Source of the DNA: an uncultured Verrucomicrobiota bacterium
GTDB lineage: Bacteria > Verrucomicrobiota > Kiritimatiellia > PWTM01
Assembly: GCA_964402695.1 (NCBI GenBank)
Contig: CAYODK010000003.1
Span: 22,697 to 86,696, forward strand
DNA: 64,000 bases
Reading direction: 5' to 3'
Each line of letters begins with the position of its first letter. Positions within the stretch are counted from its first letter, which is position 1. Below are positions 3,845 to 64,000 of the stretch, piece after piece. The notes under the pieces are model-generated. The model was not told the DNA's origin, did not search any database, and saw only the letters and a list, made by a program, of their open reading frames with translations. The translations under genes were made by a program, and so were the position numbers.

Positions 3845-4392
3845 GCCGCACCTCCGCCCAGGGTCTTGAAGGCCGCGCGCGCGGCGATGGTCCCGGCCAG
3901 CCCGTCGCGGGCGGGACCGGAGAGCTTCGGAAGGGCCGCCTGGAGCGCCGCATCGACCTCGGCGCCGGGGATGTTCTCCAGCGCGTACCGGGCCACGTCG
4001 CTCGTCTTCGCGCCTTCCAGCAGCGGCGCAAGGACCGGCACCGACGCGGCGGAGCCGATCAGGGCCAGCATCCGGCAGGCGAAGTCGCGCGCGGCGTCCG
4101 TGCAGCCGGCGTCCTTGAGGATGCCCAGGACCTTCTTCTCGAGGGCGGGGTACTGCGAGGGATCCGCGTCGAAGATCAGCGTCTGGAGACCCGAGGCGAA
4201 CGTGCGGTCGCCGCCGAACTCCATCGCCGCCGCCTCGGTCCACGGATCGGGCGACTTCTTGAACTCGTCCATCCGTTTGTCCGCATCGGCGTACTTCAGC
4301 GGGTCGCTCGACGCCCGCTTGTCCTGCGCCCGCGCGGCCGCGGCGGCGATCCCCGCCGCCAGCGCCAGCCCGGCTGTTGTCCGTTCGTTCAT
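3841..4392 (-). CDS. secreted hypothetical protein with HEAT-like repeats
   Basis: 183 aa. Signal MNERTTAGLALAAGIAAAAARAQ. Helical repeat-like C-terminal half. Translationally coupled to the oxidoreductase. Confidence 0.45.
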   Translation of the reverse strand: MNERTTAGLALAAGIAAAAARAQDKRASSDPLKYADADKRMDEFKKSPDPWTEAAAMEFGGDRTFASGLQTLIFDADPSQYPALEKKVLGILKDAGCTDAARDFACRMLALIGSAASVPVLAPLLEGAKTSDVARYALENIPGAEVDAALQAALPKLSGPARDGLAGTIAARAAFKTLGGGAA

Positions 4393-4407
4393 CCGGATGT
4401 CTCCCGA

Positions 4408-4518
4408 GGTTTCAGGTGTCAGGAAGGAGGAGTTTCAAGTTCCAAGTTTCACGTTTCAAGTTCAGAAGTCAGCCTCTTGGATGTTGGCTGTTGGGCGTTG
4501 GATGTTGGATGTTGAATC
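4408..4518. repeat. Composite heptanucleotide tandem-repeat element: GGTGTCAGG word, (GTTNCAA)x6 then (TTGGNTG)x6
   Basis: Read directly: gtttcaa gttccaa gtttcac gtttcaa gttcaga agtcagc ctc ttggatg ttggctg ttgggcg ttggatg ttggatg ttgaatc. Abuts the stop of the DUF1080 gene. Confidence 0.7.
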
Positions 4519-4519
4519 C

Positions 4520-5236
4520 CTATTTGGCCGCCTGGATCTTCAGGTTCCGGTACGCGACCTCGTCGTTGTGGTCCTGCAGCAGCAGGTGGCCGTCGGGCCA
4601 CTCGCCGAAGCCGGCGATCTTGGAGAACTTGCTCTTGGCGACCTCGGCGCGGAAGGCGTCGGAGCCGCGCTCGTACTCGACGACCTTGGCGCCGTTGAGC
4701 CAGTGCTCGACGTGCTTTCCCTTCACGACGACGCGCGCGGAGTTCCACTCGCCGATCGGGTTGACCTTCTTGCCCTTCGCGGCGGGCAGGATGTCGTAGA
4801 GCGACCCGACGGTGCGGTTGCCGTCGCGGCCGAGCTTCGCGTCGGGATGGTTGTCGTCGTCGAGGACCTGGAACTCGCACCCGACGCCGTGGCCGCCCTG
4901 CGCGCGGGAGGGGTCGATGAAGTACTTCAGTCCGCTGTTGGCGCCCTTCGTCAGGCGGAACTCGAAGCAGAGCTCGAAGTCGGCGAAGCGGTCCTTCGTG
5001 ATGATGTCGCCGGCCTTCGCGGCCTTGCCGATGGTCAGCGTGCCGTCGACCGCCTTCCACCCCGCGCCGATCTCCGGCTTCGCGAGACCCTTCCACGCAT
5101 CGAGGCTCTTCCCGTCGAACAGCAGCTTCCAGCCGTCCGCGACCTCCTGCGAGGTCAGCGTATTGCACTCCGCCGCCCCCGCGACGCACGCGACGAGAAC
5201 CGCACCCGCCATCCATCCGGCCATCCGCTTCATCAT
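4520..5236 (-). CDS. DUF1080 (3-keto-disaccharide hydrolase-like) secreted protein
   Basis: Signal MMKRMAGWMAGAVLVACVAGAAEC. Then GWKLLFDGKSLDAWKG...WKAVDGTL...FELCFEFRL...GCEFQVLDD...EWNSARVVVKG..VEHWLNG, characteristic of DUF1080. The upstream part of the track ORF (MGAGCWMLI) is repeat translation and is rejected. Confidence 0.85.
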   Translation of the reverse strand: MMKRMAGWMAGAVLVACVAGAAECNTLTSQEVADGWKLLFDGKSLDAWKGLAKPEIGAGWKAVDGTLTIGKAAKAGDIITKDRFADFELCFEFRLTKGANSGLKYFIDPSRAQGGHGVGCEFQVLDDDNHPDAKLGRDGNRTVGSLYDILPAAKGKKVNPIGEWNSARVVVKGKHVEHWLNGAKVVEYERGSDAFRAEVAKSKFSKIAGFGEWPDGHLLLQDHNDEVAYRNLKIQAAK

Positions 5237-5319
5237 GAGATCCCCCCGGCAGCCAGGCGCACCGACGCCCGGGCAAGCCGCGCCAATCCTATCACGCCCG
5301 CCGCGCGCGGATAAACCCC

Positions 5320-5362
5320 GAATCAACATCCAACAACCAGCGCCCAACAGCCAACATCCAAT
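5320..5362. repeat. (TTGGNTG)n heptamer array in reverse orientation, ~85 bp upstream of the DUF1080 start
   Basis: caacatccaacaaccagcgcccaacagccaacatccaa read directly. Confidence 0.6.
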
Positions 5363-6503: not shown

Positions 6504-6767
6504 GTGGCGGACATGATCGTGAACACGGTGACTGAGGCGAAGGCACATCTGTCGGAGCTTCTTGATCTTGTGAGTCGTGGCGAGGAGGTCATCCTTAGCC
6601 GGGCCAGGAAGCCGGTGGCCGTCCTGCAACCCTATCGCCGGTCCGGGCGGCCGCGGCAGCCGGGCAGTCTGCGGGGACAGATACGGATCGCCCCCGACTT
6701 TGACGCGCTGCCGCCGGAGATCGCGGAGGCGTTCGGAATGAAGGCGGATGGAGGCGCGACGCCATGA
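6504..6767 (+). CDS. Phd/YefM family antitoxin
   Basis: 87 aa. NTVTEAKAHLSELLDLVSRGEEVILSRARKPVAVL. Stop overlaps toxin start (ATGA). Confidence 0.8.
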   Translation: MADMIVNTVTEAKAHLSELLDLVSRGEEVILSRARKPVAVLQPYRRSGRPRQPGSLRGQIRIAPDFDALPPEIAEAFGMKADGGATP

Positions 6768-7141
6768 ACCTCCTTCTCGATACCCATGTCGTCCTGTGGT
6801 GGCTGGCGGATGCGCCCGAGCTGGGCGCCGGGGCGCGCGATGCGATCGCCGACCCGGCCAACGTGGTCCACGTCAGCGCCGTCACCGCATGGGAGATCGT
6901 TGTGAAACGCGCCTTGGGAAAGCTGGAGATCCCGGACCGATGGGAGCAGGCGCTGGCGGAGGAGCCGTTCCCGCAGTTGGCCATCTCCTGGCGCCACGCC
7001 TTGCAGGTTGGACAGCTTCCGGACATTCACCGCGACCCCTTTGACCGGCTGCTGGTCGCCCAGGCGGTCGTCGAAGGCCTGACGCTGGTCACCCGCGACG
7101 AGGCCCTCGCCCGCTACGGCATCGCCACGCTGAAGGCGTAG
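6764..7141 (+). CDS. vapC: PIN-domain toxin VapC
   Basis: 125 aa. MNLLLDTHVVLWWL. Paralog of the 53004..53408 product (HRDPFDRLLVAQA vs HRDPADRILIATS). Confidence 0.8.
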   Translation: MNLLLDTHVVLWWLADAPELGAGARDAIADPANVVHVSAVTAWEIVVKRALGKLEIPDRWEQALAEEPFPQLAISWRHALQVGQLPDIHRDPFDRLLVAQAVVEGLTLVTRDEALARYGIATLKA

Positions 7142-15164: not shown

Positions 15165-15242
15165 CGGATTCAACATCCAACACCCAACATCCAACATCGA
15201 AGCCGGTGCAACCTGAAACTTGGAACTTGGAACTTGAAACTC
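15165..15242. repeat. Composite heptamer element in a divergent promoter region: (CAACANC)x4 then GAAACTT/GGAACTT x4
   Basis: caacatc caacacc caacatc caacatc gaagccggtgcaacct gaaactt ggaactt ggaactt gaaactc. The reverse complement is the (GTTNCAA)n(TTGGNTG)n element oriented toward the LysM gene start ~45 bp away. Contains GGAAC/TGAAAC words. Confidence 0.7.
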
Positions 15243-15283
15243 CCGGATGCCATGATGCGCGACACTCTGCACGGGAGACGGAC

Positions 15284-16651
15284 ATGCGACGGTGGGCGGT
15301 TCTTGCGGCGGGGCTGGCGGCGTGGGTCGGCATCTCGGGCGCGGCGGAGCCGCGGCCGAACGTGGTCGTGATCATGACCGACGACCAGGGCACGATCGAC
15401 GCGCATTGCTGTGGCGCGGCGGATCTCGAAACGCCGGCGATCGACCGGCTCGCCCGGGAGGGGGTCCGGTTCACGCAGTTCTACTCCGCCGCCCCCGTCT
15501 GCTCGCCGTCGCGCGCCGGTCTGCTGACCGGCCGCTACCCTCCCCGCGCCGGCGTGCCGAACAACGCGCCGTCGGAATCCGGCAGGGCCGGCATGCCGCC
15601 ATCCGAGGTCACGATGGCCGAGATGTTCAAGGCCGCCGGCTACGCGACCGCTCACATCGGCAAGTGGCACCTCGGCTACTCGCCGGAGACGATGCCGAAC
15701 GCGCAGGGCTTCGACCTCTCGTTCGGCCACATGGGCGGCTGCATCGACAACTACTCGCACTTCTTCTACTGGCAGGGTCCGAACCGCCATGACCTGCACC
15801 GCGACGGCGTCGAGATCCACCGTCCCGGCCGCTTCTTCCCGGACCTGATGGTCGGGGAGGCCTCGGCGTTCCTCCGCGCGAACCGTGCCCGCCCCTTCTT
15901 CGTCTACTTCGCGCTCAACCTGCCGCACTACCCGTACCAGGGCGACGAGAAGTGGCTGAAGCGCTACGCGTCGCTGCCGCACCCGAGGAACCTCTACGCG
16001 GCCTTCGTCTCGACGCTCGACGAGCGCGTCGGGCGGCTGCTCGACGAACTCGATGCCCTCGGCCTCGCGTCGAACACGGTCGTCGTCTACCAGTCCGACA
16101 ACGGCCACTCGACCGAGGAGCGCGCGCACTTCGGCGGCGGATCGGCCGGCGAGTACCGCGGCGCCAAGTTCAGCCTGTTCGAGGGCGGCATCCGCGTCCC
16201 GGCGATCGTCCGCTGGCCCGGCCGCATCCCCGCCGGCGCGACACGCGACCAGGTCGGCCACGGCTGCGACTGGCTGCCGACGCTCGCGGAGTTGTGCGGC
16301 GTGAAACCGCCGGAGGCCGCGCTCGACGGGCGCAGCCTCGTCCCGGTGATCCGCGACGCCTCGGCGCCGACGCCGCACGACGTGCTGCACTGGCAGGTCG
16401 GCGGGCCGTGGGCCGTGCGCGAGGGCGACTGGAAGCTGCTCGGCCAGCCGCAGGACACGGGCGTCCGCCCGGCGGAGAAGCTGCCGAAGCTGTTCCTCGT
16501 CAACCTGCGCGACGACCCGCGCGAGCGGACCAACCTCGCCGACCGCGAGCCCGCGCGCGTGCAGCGCATGAAGGCGCTCCACGAGGCGTGGGTGGAAGAC
16601 ATCGGACGTCAACAACCAACATCCAACAGCCAACAACCAACAACCAAGTAG
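15284..16651 (+). CDS. sulfatase
   Basis: Start at Met27 of track ORF 15206..16651. Signal MRRWAVLAAGLAAWVGISGAAEP. PNVVVIMTDDQG. CSPSRAGLLTGRY. The last ~13 codons (QQPTSNSQQPTTK) are a translation of the heptamer repeat. Confidence 0.9.
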   Translation: MRRWAVLAAGLAAWVGISGAAEPRPNVVVIMTDDQGTIDAHCCGAADLETPAIDRLAREGVRFTQFYSAAPVCSPSRAGLLTGRYPPRAGVPNNAPSESGRAGMPPSEVTMAEMFKAAGYATAHIGKWHLGYSPETMPNAQGFDLSFGHMGGCIDNYSHFFYWQGPNRHDLHRDGVEIHRPGRFFPDLMVGEASAFLRANRARPFFVYFALNLPHYPYQGDEKWLKRYASLPHPRNLYAAFVSTLDERVGRLLDELDALGLASNTVVVYQSDNGHSTEERAHFGGGSAGEYRGAKFSLFEGGIRVPAIVRWPGRIPAGATRDQVGHGCDWLPTLAELCGVKPPEAALDGRSLVPVIRDASAPTPHDVLHWQVGGPWAVREGDWKLLGQPQDTGVRPAEKLPKLFLVNLRDDPRERTNLADREPARVQRMKALHEAWVEDIGRQQPTSNSQQPTTK

Positions 16652-16723
16652 CGAACGGGAGGACGTGCCCGCTTCGTTGGGTGTTGGGTGTTGGGTGTTG
16701 GTTGTTGGGCGTTGGCTGTTGAG
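16609..16723. repeat. Inverted pair of heptamer arrays, (CAACANC)x6 ... (TTGGNTG)x7 with ~28-nt spacer; potential long hairpin
   Basis: caacaac caacatc caacagc caacaac caacaac caagtag ... ttgggtg ttgggtg ttgggtg ttggttg ttgggcg ttggctg ttgagc read directly. Confidence 0.7.
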
Positions 16724-28817: not shown

Positions 28818-28868
28818 GTTTCACGTGGTTGGATGTTGGTTGTTGGGTATTGGCTGTTGGATGTTGAT
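28818..28868. repeat. (GTTTCAC)(TTGGNTG)x5 heptamer element ~40 bp upstream of the GH26 start
   Basis: gtttcac gtgg ttggatg ttggttg ttgggta ttggctg ttggatg ttgatc. Confidence 0.7.
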
Positions 28869-32239: not shown

Positions 32240-32361
32240 TTCGCGACAGTTTCCTGTCGCCTCATGTCCGTCTTTGCCCTCCGCCGGCTTCCGCGAAAGG
32301 ATCGTGGGTGCGGCACGATTCGTATTGACGGTGCGAATGTTTCGTATTGTACTTACGAATC

Positions 32362-33591
32362 ATGACACGTTATCGCAGGCGGGAGGTGGGGGTATTGCTG
32401 GCGCGGGCGCTGAAGCAGGCGCCGGTGGTGGTGGTCAGCGGGCTGCGCCAGTCGGGGAAGAGCACGCTGCTGCGGCAGGATCCGGCGGTCAGCGCCGGCC
32501 GCGCGTACCGGACTCTCGACGACCTGGACCTGCTCGCCGGCGCGCAGGCGGCGCCGCGTCCGTTCCTGGAGGCGGAGCCGGTGATGGCGCTGGATGAGGT
32601 GCAGCGTCTGCCATCGCTGTTCCTGCCCCTGAAGCAGACCGTCGATGAGGACCGCCGTCCGGGCCGCTTTGTCCTGACGGGCTCGGCCAACCTGCTGCTG
32701 CTCAAGAGCGTGGCGGACAGCCTGGCGGGTCGCGCGGTGTACGCCACGCTGCACCCAATGAACCGGCGCGAGATCCTGGGCCGCATCGACCGTCCCCCGG
32801 CGACGGTCCGGTTCCTGGCCGAAGGACGATGGCCGTCGGTCCGGGACGTGCCCGCGGTGACAGAGTCCGAGATCCTGCGCGGCGGATTCCCGGAAGTGGC
32901 CCTGCATCCGGACCTCGATGCGACGCTGTGGTTCGAGGGCTTCGAGCGGACGTATCTGGAGCGCGATGTGCGGGACCTGCGGCAGGTGGCCGACCTCGTG
33001 AGCTTCCGCCGGCTCCTTCGCCTGACGGCCCTGCGGGTGGGCGGCGTTCTGAACGTCAACGGGCTGGCGCGCGACGCGCAGTTGCCCGAGGCGACGGTGC
33101 GCAATCATCTGAACCTGATGGAGACGCTGATGGTCATCCGCCGGCTGCCGCCCTTCCGCGGCAACCGAAGCGCGCGGCTGATCAAGGCGCCGAAGCTGTA
33201 TCTTGCCGATACGGGGCTGGCCGCCTTCCTGGCCGGTGTGCGGGATATCGGGGCCGGCTCCGCGGAACCCTTGCGGGGCGCGCTGATCGAGAACTATGTT
33301 GTCCAGAACCTGATCGCCGCGATGGAACCGCACCTCGCCGGCGTGCAGTTCCATTACTGGCACGAGCAGGGGCGGCACGAAGTGGATCTAGTGGTCGAAT
33401 ACGGACGGCAGGTGCTGGCGATCGAGATCAAGGCCGGCGGACGCCTGGCGCCGGGGGACACCCGCGGGCTCGAAGCGTTCATGGCTCGCACCCCCGGGTG
33501 CGTGGGCGGGGTCGTCGGCTACCTCGGTCGCGACGTGGTGCCGTTGGGAGCGAAGATCCGGGCCGTTCCGCTGTCGCTGCTGCTTTCCTGA
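32362..33591 (+). CDS. AAA-family ATPase with C-terminal DUF4143-like domain
   Basis: Walker A VVVSGLRQSGKSTLL, LALDEVQ Walker B-like. Alternative start 32347. Preceded by an unusually AT-rich segment with TTCGTA/TACGAA inverted repeats. Confidence 0.75.
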   Translation: MTRYRRREVGVLLARALKQAPVVVVSGLRQSGKSTLLRQDPAVSAGRAYRTLDDLDLLAGAQAAPRPFLEAEPVMALDEVQRLPSLFLPLKQTVDEDRRPGRFVLTGSANLLLLKSVADSLAGRAVYATLHPMNRREILGRIDRPPATVRFLAEGRWPSVRDVPAVTESEILRGGFPEVALHPDLDATLWFEGFERTYLERDVRDLRQVADLVSFRRLLRLTALRVGGVLNVNGLARDAQLPEATVRNHLNLMETLMVIRRLPPFRGNRSARLIKAPKLYLADTGLAAFLAGVRDIGAGSAEPLRGALIENYVVQNLIAAMEPHLAGVQFHYWHEQGRHEVDLVVEYGRQVLAIEIKAGGRLAPGDTRGLEAFMARTPGCVGGVVGYLGRDVVPLGAKIRAVPLSLLLS

Positions 33592-49650: not shown

Positions 49651-50922
49651 TCACCCTCCTCTCGCGGGGGCGGCGTCCCAGGGGATCACGATGTCGGTTT
49701 CCGAGAGGCGCCACGCCTTCTCCACGGGTGCGACCACCAGCCCGGGAGCGATCGAAAGGCCCGGGTAGGTGGCGCGAAAGGCGCCGATCCCGCGGGCGTC
49801 GTTGCGCGACAGTCGCGTGGAGGCCTTGATCTCGACGGGGTGATATCGCCCGTCCCGTTCCAGGATCAGATCGACTTCCGCGCCGCCATGCGACCGCCAG
49901 TGATACAAGGCGGGCGGCGCGGACATGCGGCTGCACAGGCGTCGAACCTCGCCCGCAGCCGCGGTTTCGACCAGCGCGCCCAGCGCCGGGTGGGACGCGA
50001 TCGCCGATGGGCTGGAGATCGCCAGCGCCATGCAGGCGATGCCGGTATCGGCGATGTACCCCTTGGCCTTGCCCGACACGCGCTTGACGGTGTTGCCCGA
50101 GAAGGCCGGCGTCTCGAACCACTGAAACGAGGACTTCAGAATCGCCAGCCAGTGGGCGGCCGTCTTCGGATTGATCCCGATGTCACGCCCCAGATGGGCG
50201 AAGTTGATCTCCTGCGCGGTCAGCGCAGCGGCGAGCCTCAGGAACCGGCCGAACAGCTGGCCGTCGGACACATCCGCCATCAGACGAACATCCCGCTCGA
50301 TGTAGGTCCGCTGGTAGCCCTCGTGGAACGAGCGCACCCCGTCCAGGGGCAGCCGCCGCGCCTCCGGCAACGCGCCCCGGTACAGGTACTCGTAGGGACC
50401 GACGGGAAGCCCGCGCGATATCCACGCCAGGGCCGTTTCGGGCTCCGGTGCCCGGAGCCAGTCCTCGATCCAGGACATCGACGGAGAGGCCGCGCCGCAC
50501 CACTCCGCCATTTCGAACCCATGCAGATCGAGGAACACCGCGCGGCCGGCCAGGCTTTCCGACAGGCTGCGCATTACGGCCCATTGCTGGCTTCCAGTCA
50601 GAAGAAACCGGCCCGGACGACGGTCGCGATCCACCGCGCGCTTGACCGCAGCCGCGAGTTCCGGGGCGTACTGGATTTCGTCGAGCACCAACGGCTCGCG
50701 GTGGTTCTTCAGGAAGAGATCCGGATCCCGGCGGGCACCCTCCACATCGTACGAAGGATCGAACGTCACGTAGTCCGCATCCGGAAGGATGTGACGAAGC
50801 AGTGTCGACTTTCCCACCTGCCTTGCGCCCGTCACCACCACCACCGGAAAGAGACTGAATAGCCTCGTCAGCCGTTCCGTGACCTGACGATACGTATAGT
50901 TATCTTGATTTGCGGTATCCAT
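49651..50922 (-). CDS. AAA-family ATPase with DUF4143-like domain (paralog of 32362..33591)
   Basis: Start at Met20 of track ORF 49651..50979: MDTANQDNYTYRQVTERL...VVVVTGARQVGKSTLL Walker A. Somewhat lower GC than its neighbours. Its C-terminal codons overlap repeat segment 2. Confidence 0.75.
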   Translation of the reverse strand: MDTANQDNYTYRQVTERLTRLFSLFPVVVVTGARQVGKSTLLRHILPDADYVTFDPSYDVEGARRDPDLFLKNHREPLVLDEIQYAPELAAAVKRAVDRDRRPGRFLLTGSQQWAVMRSLSESLAGRAVFLDLHGFEMAEWCGAASPSMSWIEDWLRAPEPETALAWISRGLPVGPYEYLYRGALPEARRLPLDGVRSFHEGYQRTYIERDVRLMADVSDGQLFGRFLRLAAALTAQEINFAHLGRDIGINPKTAAHWLAILKSSFQWFETPAFSGNTVKRVSGKAKGYIADTGIACMALAISSPSAIASHPALGALVETAAAGEVRRLCSRMSAPPALYHWRSHGGAEVDLILERDGRYHPVEIKASTRLSRNDARGIGAFRATYPGLSIAPGLVVAPVEKAWRLSETDIVIPWDAAPARGG

Positions 50923-50982
50923 AGGACTGATATTCAAGAAAAGTATGCCTACATCTGAACAAGAGCAAGCCTGATCCACGGT

Positions 50983-61937: not shown

Positions 61938-62791
61938 GCGACGCGGAACCCAGAACGAACGCGGGGGCGCTGCCGGACCGGCACACGCTGCGCGCGGCCA
62001 TCGAGCGGATCCACGGGGAGTGCATGCGGGCCGACCCGGCCCTGCGCGACGCCCTGCACGCCGAGTACGGCCGCGCCGGGATGGTCACGCGGTTCGCCTC
62101 GATCGTCCGGGCGTTCCGCCGGCTCCTGCCCGCCGGCCGCCCGCTCGACGGGCTCGAGGTCGGCGTCGGCGAGGGCGCGCTCGTCCTCGCGCTGCACGAG
62201 TTCGTCCCGGCCGTCCGCTGGCAGGGCGTCGACATCCCGCTGCGCCATTCCACCTACCAGCGCGAGTTCGACGCGATCATGGCGCGGCACTCGATCCGGA
62301 TCGTCGAGGCCGACCTGACGAGGAACACGATCCCCTTCCCCGACGCGTCGTTCGACGCGGTATCGTTCTCCGAGGTGCTCGAGCACCTGCCCGCCAACGG
62401 CGTGATGCCGACCCTGCGCGAAATCGCGCGCATCCTGCGCCCGGGCGGGGTCGTCGTGGCCACCTCGCCGAACCTCCTCTCGCTGATGAATCGTCTGCTG
62501 CTCCTGGCGGGACGGAGCCCGTTTCACCTGCCGGTCTCCGAGAATTACAACGGCAGCGATGTGTATCCCCACATCCACCTCTACGCCGCGTTCGAGTTCG
62601 AGGCCCTGTGCCGCAAGGCGGGGCTCGAGCCCGCGGGCCGGGAGCACCTGACCTACCTGACCCACGCGTTCTTCGGCGGGAACGCGGCCCGCAACGCGGC
62701 GCTGCGCGCCTACCTCGCCGCCGAAGCCGTGCTGGGCGCGGTCGCCCCGGCCCTGAAGGACGGCTGGCTCGTCGCGGCGCGCAAGCCATGA
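61934..62791 (+). CDS. class I SAM-dependent methyltransferase
   Basis: LEVGVGEGALVL (motif I) and FDAVSFSEVLEHL. Confidence 0.8.
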   Translation: MSDAEPRTNAGALPDRHTLRAAIERIHGECMRADPALRDALHAEYGRAGMVTRFASIVRAFRRLLPAGRPLDGLEVGVGEGALVLALHEFVPAVRWQGVDIPLRHSTYQREFDAIMARHSIRIVEADLTRNTIPFPDASFDAVSFSEVLEHLPANGVMPTLREIARILRPGGVVVATSPNLLSLMNRLLLLAGRSPFHLPVSENYNGSDVYPHIHLYAAFEFEALCRKAGLEPAGREHLTYLTHAFFGGNAARNAALRAYLAAEAVLGAVAPALKDGWLVAARKP

Positions 62792-63639
62792 TGCCGCCGG
62801 CGATCATCCTGTGCGGCGGCCGCGCCACGAGGCTGGCCGCTCTCCACGGCGACCGCCCGAAGGCGCTCGTGCCGGTCGCGGGCCGCCCCTTCCTCGAGTG
62901 GCAGATCGCGTGGCTCGCGCGCGGCGGCGTGCGACGTGTCCATCTCGCCGCCGGCCACCTGGCGGACCAGCTCGCGGCGTGGGCGGAGGAGGTGTCAGGT
63001 GTCGGGTGTCCGGTGTCAGGAGGACGGGCCGGATGGCTGCCACCGATGATTCGATATCTGTCCTCCGGCGTCCTCGAGGGCGGGGGGTTGACATCCGGTG
63101 CCCGGTGTTCGGCCTCCGCCCCTGACACCCGACACCTGACACCTGAAACCTCCGTGTCTCTTTCCGTCGAGCCCCGGCCGCTGGGCACGGGCGGCGGATT
63201 GCGGTACGCGGCGGACTTTGTCGACGGCGACGCGATGCTCGTGGTGAACGGCGACACGCTGCTGCCCGGCCTGGATTTCCAAGGGTTGGAAGCCGCGGCC
63301 GAGCGGACTTCCAAGGGTTGGACGTCGATCGCGGTGACGCGGGTCGACGACGCGGCCCGGTTCGGAACCGTGACGGTCGAGGACGGCCGCGTGGTCGATT
63401 TCCTCGAAAAGGGGCGCTCCGCGTCGGGCTGGATCAACGGCGGCGTCTACCGGATGAGCCGCGCGGCCGTCGACTCGATCCCGCGCGAAACGGCCGTTTC
63501 CATCGAGACCGACCTCTTCCCGGACTGGGCGCGCGACGGCCGCATCGCCGCCGTCCCCGCCGATCCGCCCCTGCTCGACATGGGCACGCCCGACGGTCTC
63601 GCGGAGATGGTCCGCTGGCTGGACGCGCACCGCCCGTGA
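62788..63639 (+). CDS. sugar-1-phosphate nucleotidyltransferase (HddC/ManC-like) carrying an in-frame ~160-bp palindromic insertion
   Basis: AIILCGGRATRL (G-G-x-x-T-R), PLGTGGGL, VVNGDTL, GVY motifs in HddC order. Insertion lies between AAWAEE and VSLSVEPRPLGTGGG. Confidence 0.8.
   Translation: MMPPAIILCGGRATRLAALHGDRPKALVPVAGRPFLEWQIAWLARGGVRRVHLAAGHLADQLAAWAEEVSGVGCPVSGGRAGWLPPMIRYLSSGVLEGGGLTSGARCSASAPDTRHLTPETSVSLSVEPRPLGTGGGLRYAADFVDGDAMLVVNGDTLLPGLDFQGLEAAAERTSKGWTSIAVTRVDDAARFGTVTVEDGRVVDFLEKGRSASGWINGGVYRMSRAAVDSIPRETAVSIETDLFPDWARDGRIAAVPADPPLLDMGTPDGLAEMVRWLDAHRP
62989..63148. mobile_element. MITE-like element with terminal inverted repeats built from NGGTGTC heptamers (ggtgtcaggtgtcgggtgtccggtgtcagg ... 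cctgacacccgacacctgacacctg)
   Basis: Read directly inside the nucleotidyltransferase ORF. No stop codon introduced. Confidence 0.55.
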
Positions 63640-63716: not shown

Positions 63717-63758
63717 GTGTAACATTATCGAGTGCGACCGCACTCGGTAATGTTACAC
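63717..63758. promoter_or_regulatory. Near-perfect palindrome with 20-bp arms gtgtaacattatcgagtgcg-acc-cgcactcggtaatgttacac (one mismatch), AT-richer than surroundings
   Basis: Read directly. Lies 78 nt after the nucleotidyltransferase stop and ~58 nt before the next ATG. Operator or terminator. Confidence 0.35.
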
Positions 63759-63815
63759 ATCGAGGCGACCGCGCGCGGCAGTCCGATCGGTCGGGCCTTG
63801 AAACCGCGGCCCGGA

Positions 63816-64000
63816 ATGTCGAGACTCGCGGGCATGAACCCGATGCCTGAAGGCGTGGATGCCGCCCCGAGCGGATCGCCCCCCGGACGCGGAACGCCGA
63901 ATCCGGAACCCGGAACCTCCGCGCCCGTGCGCCCGCTGCCGCGTACGCGGACGTGCTATGTCTGCGGCGTCGAGAATCCCGGCGGATTCCGGCTCGCGAT
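63816..64000 (+). CDS. partial CDS (5' end), possibly hotdog-fold thioesterase-like
   Basis: MSRLAGMNPMPEGVDAAPSGSPPGRGTPNPEPGTSAPVRPLPRTRTCYVCGVENPGGFRLA. The C-x-x-C-G-x-x-N-P-x-G-[FL] word recalls the PaaI-like thioesterase N-terminus. Truncated by the window end. Confidence 0.3.
   Translation, partial: MSRLAGMNPMPEGVDAAPSGSPPGRGTPNPEPGTSAPVRPLPRTRTCYVCGVENPGGFRLA

Follow-up and report, generated by a model that had tools for sequence, protein, structure and literature searches.

A palindromic insert with heptanucleotide arrays in the reading frame of an HddC-like nucleotidyltransferase gene from an uncultured Verrucomicrobiota bacterium

How a gene for a metabolic enzyme comes to carry a long palindrome in its reading frame, and what this means for the enzyme, is the question raised by an HddC/ManC-like sugar-1-phosphate nucleotidyltransferase gene near the end of a 64,000-nucleotide stretch of DNA from an uncultured Verrucomicrobiota bacterium (contig CAYODK010000003.1; the whole stretch is hereafter the window). 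A sequence-only reading had described a segment of about 160 bp in this gene, at 62989-63148, as an in-frame insertion resembling a miniature inverted-repeat transposable element (MITE), and had left three options for it, namely a tolerated surface insertion, a recent inactivation of the gene, or an excisable element that gates the pathway. In this study, the segment was analyzed together with its orthologs and a structure model of the protein. The results favor the first option, in that the insert is probably tolerated, presumably translated and essentially neutral repeat DNA in a permissive loop of a working enzyme. The element itself is best explained, with similar confidence, as a mosaic of heptanucleotide arrays typical of the lineage and not as a discrete transposon.

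The insert and the enzyme that carries it

The palindromic element occupies positions 62988-63153 on the plus strand, within a few bases of the earlier placement, and its inverted repeats do consist of the NGGTGTC heptamers described there. A 30-bp main stem (62988-63019 with 63122-63153) closes two internal hairpins. The inverted arms form an imperfect palindrome over 58 nt (62988-63045 and 63096-63153, 76%), with terminal arms of 24 nt matching at 96% (62990-63013 and 63121-63144). Both arms are tandem arrays detected by Tandem Repeats Finder (TRF). The left one, (GGTGTCN)x4.4 at 62990-63020 (reported as (AGGTGTC)x4.4), encodes VSGVGCPVSG, and the right one at 63121-63151 is its reverse complement, (NGACACC)x4.4 (reported as (CCTGACA)x4.4), and encodes PDTRHLTPET. 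The core between them folds into hairpin A (63020-63075), which contains GATGATTCGATATC, and hairpin B (63078-63121), recognized by repeats, fold and alignment, which contains CGGTGCC/CGGTGTT/CGGCCTC.

The word GTGTC bounds the insert as a 5-nt direct repeat (62992-62996 and 63154-63158), and the insert between the two copies is exactly 162 nt, that is, 54 codons in frame without a stop. The count of about 54 residues in the sequence-only reading was therefore accurate, and the peptide quoted there is the true in-frame translation. In the 283-aa protein the insert lies between AAWAEE and SLSVEPRPLGTGGG, in agreement with its proposed location between AAWAEE and PLGTGGGL. GTGTC also forms the core of the heptamer unit, and the Val-Ser that opens the conserved strand VSLSVEP is encoded by the right copy, which makes the direct repeat ambiguous as a target-site duplication.

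The fold of 62980-63160 is far more stable than expected from shuffled sequences. As RNA, its minimum free energy was -120.1 kcal/mol (z = -8.18), and as DNA -59.4 kcal/mol (z = -7.09), with 0 of 200 shuffles as good in either case. The double-heptamer word GGTGTCNGGTGTC, with at most one mismatch, had 7 matches in the window vs. 0.45 expected, a number reached by none of 100 shuffles. The same insert is present in independent NCBI, JGI, ENA and Logan assemblies, so it is no assembly artefact.

The host gene (62788-63639, plus strand) starts in an ATGA overlap, its start codon sharing bases with the stop codon of an upstream methyltransferase-like open reading frame (ORF). The 283-aa product carries the Pfam domains PF00483 (NTP_transferase) and PF12804 (NTP_transf_3), and the NTP_transferase fold, the G-rich loop and the EPxPLGTGG motif are all present. 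Among solved structures, HddC of Yersinia (6jq8/5xhw) is the nearest, and its chain residues 4-61 and 73-215 match residues 5-62 and 121-269 of the host protein. In this alignment all of the ~47 extra residues fall in a single loop, residues 62-121 being the counterpart of HddC residues 61-73. An AlphaFold (AF2) model built on 31 homologs gave a predicted local distance difference test (pLDDT) score above 90 for the core and of 33-51 for residues 70-120, which are flanked by a helix (56-70) and a strand (122-126), and compared with 5xhw it reached a target-normalised template-modelling (TM) score of 0.89. The modelling thus places the insert in a loop, a point on which the sequence-only reading had asked for a structure. 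As modelled, it is a disordered loop of ~54 residues between helix alpha2 and strand beta3, apparently a permissive surface loop; since it is placed before a strand, it should by the usual Rossmann-type geometry sit off the active-site face.

Alignment with homologs confirmed the insertion point. Counted from the HLAAGH motif to EP.PLGTG, the segment measures 19-23 aa in 16 Kiritimatiellae homologs, 29 aa in L003 and ~73 aa in the window gene. The host protein scored 90.2 bits against the HddC equivalog model NF049965 (NCBIfam cut-off 300) and 122 against the NCBIfam ManC model (cut-off 440), and the adjacent kinase scored 148.7 against the HddA model (cut-off 600). With scores so far under the equivalog cut-offs, "HddC-like" here names the fold and the gene context and implies no proven specificity. 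That context is a glycan cluster with an HddA-like GHMP kinase, a GT2 glycosyltransferase and a methyltransferase, to which the cluster of ortholog L081 adds epimerases.

Insert alleles, selection and recombination

The nearest relatives of the host protein come from uncultured bacteria of the Planctomycetes-Verrucomicrobia-Chlamydiae (PVC) group. The best genome match is a metagenome-assembled genome labelled Lentisphaerae (81% identity), and other close genome matches are labelled Verrucomicrobiota or Kiritimatiellae. An insert at the loop was found in 12/12 of the closest protein clusters (P0002-P0013, 61-86% identity), all of them full length, and no empty-site allele was seen among these 12.

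DNA was compared for ten orthologs, whose inserts fall into three groups, two of them distinct allele types. Type 1, the same palindromic element, is carried by the window, L083, L084, L081 and L001, with hairpin z-scores of -10, -3.6, -6.3, -3.9 and -3.2, respectively. Type 2, in L085, L002, L086 and L087, has the same ends and (GGTGTCN)n on the left, while the remainder is a mosaic of (GGTGTTC/GTTCGAT)n, (CCCTCCA)n and (CGGACCT)n arrays. Type-2 alleles show no significant folding (z about 0), though their flanks are equally close. The last two orthologs, L088 and L089, carry shorter inserts without clear arrays. In hairpin B of type 1, CGGTGCC/CGGTGTT/CGGCCTC is what is left of a decayed array of period 7 and can be aligned to (GGTGTTC)n in type 2, and GATGATTCGATATC in hairpin A resembles, as judged by eye, a decayed form of their (GTTCGAT)n array. 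As type 1 keeps relics of type-2 arrays, the two types are homologous mosaics. The sequence-only reading had argued that the segment would be an ordinary lineage-specific loop if related genomes had equivalent residues there and no inverted repeats. This applies in part, as equally close orthologs have an insert of heptamer arrays with z about 0.

Differences between close alleles point to how the arrays may change. In L083, 4/4 left units read GGTTTCA in place of GGTGTCA and the right arm is unaltered, a concerted change of the whole array. Within protein clusters of at least 90% identity, P0136 differs from P0009 by FHPPPST, equivalent to 21 nt or three (CCCTCCA) units. Copy number thus changes between near-identical alleles, with survival limited to steps of three units. 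One unit of the right array is placed so that its variable base opens an in-frame NGA codon; this base is C (CGA) in 5/5 type-1 orthologs, which is weakly consistent with avoidance of a stop codon. Further, a ~30-nt GC-rich hairpin, CCCGCCTTCGCCAGGCCTTCGGCGGGCGGG, lies in frame within the (GGTGTC) array of L085 (1621-1650) and L087 (1319-1348), two type-2 alleles of different flank clades; no other copies of it were found.

More distant orthologs carry other repeats at the same place. L092 (50% identity, GC 52%) has a perfect (TTCACAT)x3.4 array in the loop, the sole tandem repeat in 16.8 kb, and L093 (43% identity) has an unrelated palindromic insert of 210 nt (-86.8 kcal/mol). The loop has thus been hit independently in these lineages.

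The selection acting on the five type-1 genes was then compared between flanks and insert. The ratio of nonsynonymous to synonymous substitution (dN/dS) of the flanks was 0.10-0.19 overall, with 0.03-0.14 for the N-terminal 66 residues and 0.10-0.26 for the C-terminal 159 residues. Both flanks are under purifying selection, and the gene, which is therefore read through the insert, is no pseudogene. In the insert, dN/dS was 0.67-1.67, with similar divergence at the three codon positions. For the closest pair, L081-L001, the insert divergence of 0.157 equals the synonymous divergence of the flanks (pS 0.160), indicating neutral drift. These results fit the option of a tolerated surface insertion by loop position, selected flanks and neutral insert, and refute a recent inactivation, since the gene is intact, flank dN/dS is 0.03-0.26 and the insert is common to orthologs with a flank synonymous divergence of 0.16-0.45.

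The allele types do not track the tree of the flanks. In the flank-codon tree, L084, which has a type-1 insert, pairs as sister with the type-2 carrier L002 (100% bootstrap), and the type-2 carrier L085 is placed within the type-1 clade. Between L084 and L002, the difference amounts to 1-4% in the outer parts of the gene vs. 12-18% beside the insert, and the divergent block of ~330 bp (about L084 390-720) comprises the insert and roughly 75 and 90 nt of flank. Since the allele switch includes flanking gene sequence, it looks like the footprint of homologous recombination, or possibly of chimeric assembly, and not of precise excision, which leaves the excision option of the sequence-only reading without support from the one switch that could be traced (~75-90 nt of flank taken per side). 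Over the whole 2-kb contigs of L084 and L002, blocks of 95-100% identity alternate with blocks of 75-85%, which would indicate frequent homologous recombination among populations or, alternatively, strain-chimeric assemblies. Joint transfer of insert and flanks by recombination would also explain why the divergence of some inserts is below that of the synonymous sites of the flanks. Selection at the nucleotide level was considered as the cause of this low divergence and set aside for recombination, given the discordance between flank tree and allele type, the block-like identity profile, and the insert divergence equal to pS in the closest pair.

Based on these results, a mechanism can be proposed. 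Arrays would arise, expand, contract and homogenise by replication slippage, whole arrays may switch their unit sequence in concert, and copy-number steps would survive only if they add up to a multiple of 3 nt. Strand or template switching on a quasi-palindrome, in either direction, is the most likely source of the inverted copy, and the mosaic of this lineage, holding both (GGTGTCN)4 and its inverse, folds into a long hairpin. Selection would act only to keep the frame open and the insert within a loop where the fold is spared, the disordered loop of ~54 residues would drift at the neutral rate, and alternative insert alleles would pass between related lineages by homologous recombination of the surrounding gene segment. 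We infer the translation of the insert, its origin by slippage and template switching, and its lack of function from these comparisons.

Heptamer arrays of the window and rival explanations

Period-7 arrays are characteristic of the window, which has 10 such segments (0.0 in shuffles) but no segments with a period of 8 or of 10-12, and they also occur in other Kiritimatiellae loci. In the window they are mostly intergenic, often directly 5′ of the starts of secreted sulfatases and glycoside hydrolases. The right end of the element, CCTGACACCTGAAACCTC (63135-63152 on the plus strand), recurs as an exact 18-nt copy on the minus strand at 4406-4423. This copy includes the word GGTGTCAGG at 4415-4423, which the sequence-only reading had located at 4410-4426 and taken to link the heptamer families; the link is upheld by the 18-mer common to both places. 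The copy lies just 5′ of the Shine-Dalgarno sequence and ATG of a minus-strand gene starting at 4392, adjoins (AGTTTCA)n and (TTGGATG)n arrays, and has the same sense in the mRNA of that gene as in the transferase mRNA. When the element was compared with the other array regions of the window, only this 18-mer exceeded the shuffled controls.

Several of the window's arrays share an architecture of their own. Two unrelated genes, one for a sulfatase and one of the GFO/IDH/MocA type, have a common composite 5′ region (15171-15256 on the plus and 4393-4518 on the minus strand) in the order (CAACANC)4-5, spacer, (GAAACTT/GGAACTT)3-4 and start codon, which suggests a shared module of heptamer arrays in the 5′ untranslated region (5′ UTR) or promoter. 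Closely alike (GTTGGNT)5-7 arrays of ~40 nt stand at 28828-28866 (+), 16676-16721 (+), 5321-5362 (-) and 4477-4518 (+), three of them ~40 nt 5′ of the starts of genes for a GH26 enzyme, an unknown protein and a 3-keto-disaccharide hydrolase. The ORF at 4520-5347, which has ~43-nt (GTTGGNT)n arrays in inverted orientation on its two sides (4477-4518 and 5321-5362), was considered as a transposase associated with repetitive extragenic palindromes (REP; the RAYT family), and this was ruled out by its Pfam assignment, PF06439, a 3-keto-disaccharide hydrolase. At 16610-16721, (CAACAAC)x5.4 and (GTTGGGT)x6.6 arrays, 28 nt apart, form an intergenic hairpin, and the former array supplies the final ~13 codons of a sulfatase ORF ending at 16651. 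A (CCCGGAA)x5 array at 63882-63917 lies in the N-terminal region of the ORF 3′ of the transferase (start ~63835) and would be another coding-region array.

Other repeats and genes were also recorded. A near-perfect, AT-richer palindrome (GTGTAACATTATCGAGTGCG / GCACTCGGTAATGTTACAC, ~19-bp arms, 1 mismatch) occupies the intergenic positions 63717-63759 after the transferase; at the matching place the L081 ortholog has a Laminin_G_3 gene, which is absent from the window. The strongest tandem repeat of the window is a 43-nt unit repeated 4.3 times at 981-1167 (90% identity, TRF score 276). Two paralogous genes for AAA_14 + DUF4143 ATPases lie at 32347-33588 (+) and 49654-50979 (-), and a PIN-domain gene at 6764-7138.

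Among the alternatives, it is possible, though rather improbable, that a non-autonomous element like a MITE or a Rickettsia palindromic element (RPE) transposed once into the loop in an ancestor, with GTGTC duplicated as its target site. It is improbable to the same degree that the arrays are the terminal inverted repeats of such an element and the type-2 alleles its degraded or rearranged derivatives. The terminal arms, the size of 162-166 bp that is typical of MITEs and RPEs, the GTGTC repeat exactly bounding the 162-nt insert, the element's right terminus recurring as the 18-mer at 4406-4423 and the unrelated palindrome in the same loop of L093 all agree with this origin, and in-frame insertion in metabolic genes is the hallmark of RPEs (PMC10969869). 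However, a BLAST search for the ~100-nt core found no second copy in the 64-kb window or in 93 compared loci, only the orthologous site. A metagenome scan for exact matches to a degenerate 28-nt core pattern fitting five orthologs hit the orthologous gene only, in two contigs, and missed the known JGI ortholog L083. No transposase family was matched among the 31 larger window ORFs scanned against Pfam. Further, the apparent target-site duplication is the repeat-unit core and codes for conserved Val-Ser, types 1 and 2 have common ends and internal array relics yet only type 1 is palindromic, and the traced allele swap carries flanking gene sequence. Of the marks of a MITE, the element thus has the terminal inverted repeats (24 nt at 96%, 58 nt at 76%), but neither dispersed copies within the window, the 93 loci and the metagenome scan nor a related insertion sequence or transposase among the window ORFs scanned. 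Of those of an RPE, it has a palindrome of ~100-150 bp in frame at a fold-compatible position, but no multi-copy family with a conserved peptide, the dN/dS of its peptide being about 1. The MITE-like, excisable gating element of the sequence-only reading, for which a search for further copies had been advised, finds no backing in these searches: there was no second core copy, no empty site in the 12 clusters and no transposase among the 31 ORFs.

It is unlikely that the insert is a contingency (phase-variation) device, in which gain or loss of a 7-nt unit would shift the frame and turn off or split the nucleotidyltransferase, and with it the surface-glycan pathway, the in-frame state being ON. 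Equally unlikely is the specific form in which the arrays in the loop act as a slippage-driven switch, the enzyme being off or made as two pieces by termination-reinitiation. The unit length is no multiple of 3 and the tandem repeat lies within an ORF, in the glycan cluster described above. Perfect arrays exist, (GGTTTCA)x4.7 in L083 and (TTCACAT)x3.4 in L092, and array copy number differs between near-identical alleles. In addition, three independently predicted proteins (P0123-P0125, 197 aa, L083-type, from Logan contigs of 1.4-3.2 kb) start at Met87 within the insert, and a simulated slip by -1 unit in the L083-type allele ends the N-terminal ORF at a TGA overlapping the Met87 ATG. On the other hand, these 197-aa calls may be contig truncations, and a search for N-terminal frameshift fragments of the L083-type allele gave only unrelated truncated homologs. 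All alleles with readable DNA are in frame, and low rates of slippage are to be expected from arrays of only about 4, mostly imperfect, units.

The same gene contains another repeat of non-triplet period (31 nt), which also agrees with phase variation and may act as the same kind of switch. This second hot spot (window 63273-63327) consists of the 15-nt palindrome TTCCAANNNTTGGAA at a period of 31-32 nt, with 2 copies in the window vs. a chance expectation of 0.01. In other Kiritimatiellae orthologs, TTCCAACGATTGGAA is present in 3-6 copies (L004 2473-2612, L005 1882-2021, L011 609-780, L013 2495-2572 and L007 1040-1086). The 31-32-nt repeat is read in three frames, as FQxLE, SNDWK and FPTIGK, and among the loci compared it occurs only inside the host gene.

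Somewhat more doubtful still is a function of the hairpin or the heptamers as RNA or DNA, as an RNase III or pausing site or as a platform for a heptamer-recognising protein that would also act on the 5′-UTR arrays, forming a regulon. The structure is very stable (z = -8 to -10), the 18-mer stands in the same sense just 5′ of another gene's Shine-Dalgarno sequence, heptamer arrays lie directly 5′ of several window start codons, and variation within the units falls mostly at one position, as judged by eye. Heptamer repeats 5′ of starts have been proposed as sites of post-transcriptional regulators (PMC4679880). However, covariation in the stem of the five type-1 orthologs was not significant, as the 4 pairs with changes on both sides were equalled in 284 of 500 shuffles. 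A further 22 stem pairs vary on one side yet stay paired, which would favor a function, vs. 17 that break in some sequences. RNAalifold on the same five sequences returned an unfavourable covariation term and no convincing structure conservation. Moreover, the structure is missing (z about 0) from orthologs that are just as close, insert and synonymous sites of the cleanest pair evolve at one rate, and no Rfam family, sigma-70 promoter or intrinsic terminator was found at the element, the Rfam scan giving only miRNA-hairpin matches far below threshold.

Finally, a pseudogene or an assembly artefact, which the unusual, repeat-rich insert and the frequent breaks of relatives' contigs nearby (P0133 and P0135 begin just after the insert) might have suggested, is effectively refuted by the intact ORF in independent assemblies from four sources and the strong purifying selection on both sides of the insert.

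Several points weigh against the preferred explanation of a tolerated, neutral mosaic of arrays. The palindrome of the window (z = -10) is much better than neutral decay from an old ancestor predicts, so something has refreshed it, be it templated repair, re-expansion of the arrays or selection. The exact 18-mer common to the insert and a 5′ UTR 58 kb away, in the same sense, ties arrays at different loci by descent or by some unnamed copying process. In several pairs the insert is less diverged than the synonymous sites of the flanks (window vs. L084, 0.13 vs. 0.44), and a constraint at the nucleotide level could act on it beside recombination. Translation of the insert is deduced from its reading frame. 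Mosaic identity between metagenome contigs can stem from chimeric assembly, and dispersed, diverged copies of the core could exist, as the search covered 64 kb of this genome and the scan used an exact pattern.

Known repeat systems and significance of the insert

Cyanobacterial short tandemly repeated repetitive (STRR) sequences have the heptanucleotide units CCCCAGT, TTGGTCA and CAACAGT. TAACTGA heptanucleotide repeats occur in Beggiatoaceae, Cyanobacteria and Bacteroidetes (PMC4679880, which cites Mrazek et al. 2007). Like these long simple sequence repeats (LSSRs), the arrays described here are abundant tandem 7-nt units in 3-6 copies, mostly intergenic and often 5′ of starts, for which slippage has been proposed (PMC4679880), and both arms of the insert have the head-to-tail 7-nt units in at least 3 copies (4.4 by TRF) that define an LSSR. 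In contrast to the STRR and TAACTGA repeats, the units here are GGTGTCN/GGTTTCA, CAACANC/GTTGGNT and AGTTTCA, and the CAACANC of the window only resembles STRR3. Also unlike known heptanucleotide LSSRs, the arrays of the insert are paired as inverted copies, in frame within a coding region, where 7-nt units are expected to be counter-selected. Literature searches gave no description of heptanucleotide arrays for a high-GC PVC lineage.

RPEs form multi-copy families, each of which encodes a conserved peptide, and R. conorii has 44 insertions (PMC10969869). The insert is like them in being a palindrome of ~150 bp in frame in a metabolic enzyme gene, at a fold-compatible site and with the host gene under purifying selection, and it would be like them in effect if, as is likely, it is translated as an extra peptide. 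It is unlike them in that no second core copy was found here, in being built of 7-nt tandem arrays, in having two very different alleles at one site, and in its host from an unrelated phylum, and no kinship in sequence is expected. With bacterial MITEs (ERIC, BOX, Correia and cyanobacterial; PMC10969869) it shares small size, terminal inverted repeats, hairpin potential and in-frame fusion to a host ORF, whereas no dispersed family, unambiguous target-site duplication or cognate transposase was found here, and its "terminal inverted repeats" are tandem heptamer arrays whose unit sequence and copy number vary among orthologs.

In Borg elements, tandem repeats in ORFs create disordered regions, for which strong selection is reported (PMC9879509). 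The insert is similar in that fast-evolving nucleotide repeats in an ORF yield a protein segment that is modelled as disordered, and different in its 7-nt units, neutral evolution and palindromic segment. Simple sequence repeat (SSR) contingency loci, as in Haemophilus influenzae (PMC12721329, PMC8262952), likewise have non-triplet units in or near surface-structure genes, where slippage can alter frame or expression; unlike them, the arrays here are short and imperfect, and the alleles whose DNA could be read are all in frame. If the insert were nonetheless a phase-variation device, contingency loci would be extended to free-living PVC bacteria, and the recurrence of heptamer arrays at this loop in orthologs of 50% identity would mean repeated selection for switchability and not mere tolerance.

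As preferred here, the locus is a clean natural case, outside Rickettsia, of repeat DNA within an enzyme gene. For practical use, it marks a position of the HddC/ManC fold that accepts insertions, and it tells annotators that such length variants are no pseudogenes. The comparative evidence, unusually good for such a case, is of a loop that was colonised repeatedly, of two radically different alleles that move by recombination, and of an insert that drifts while the enzyme stays selected. It further indicates that 7-nt arrays can persist in coding DNA as triplets of units, and it draws attention to how abundant heptanucleotide arrays, so far undescribed there, are in high-GC genomes of the Kiritimatiellota/Lentisphaerota-like kind, where many stand directly 5′ of the starts of secreted carbohydrate-active enzymes.

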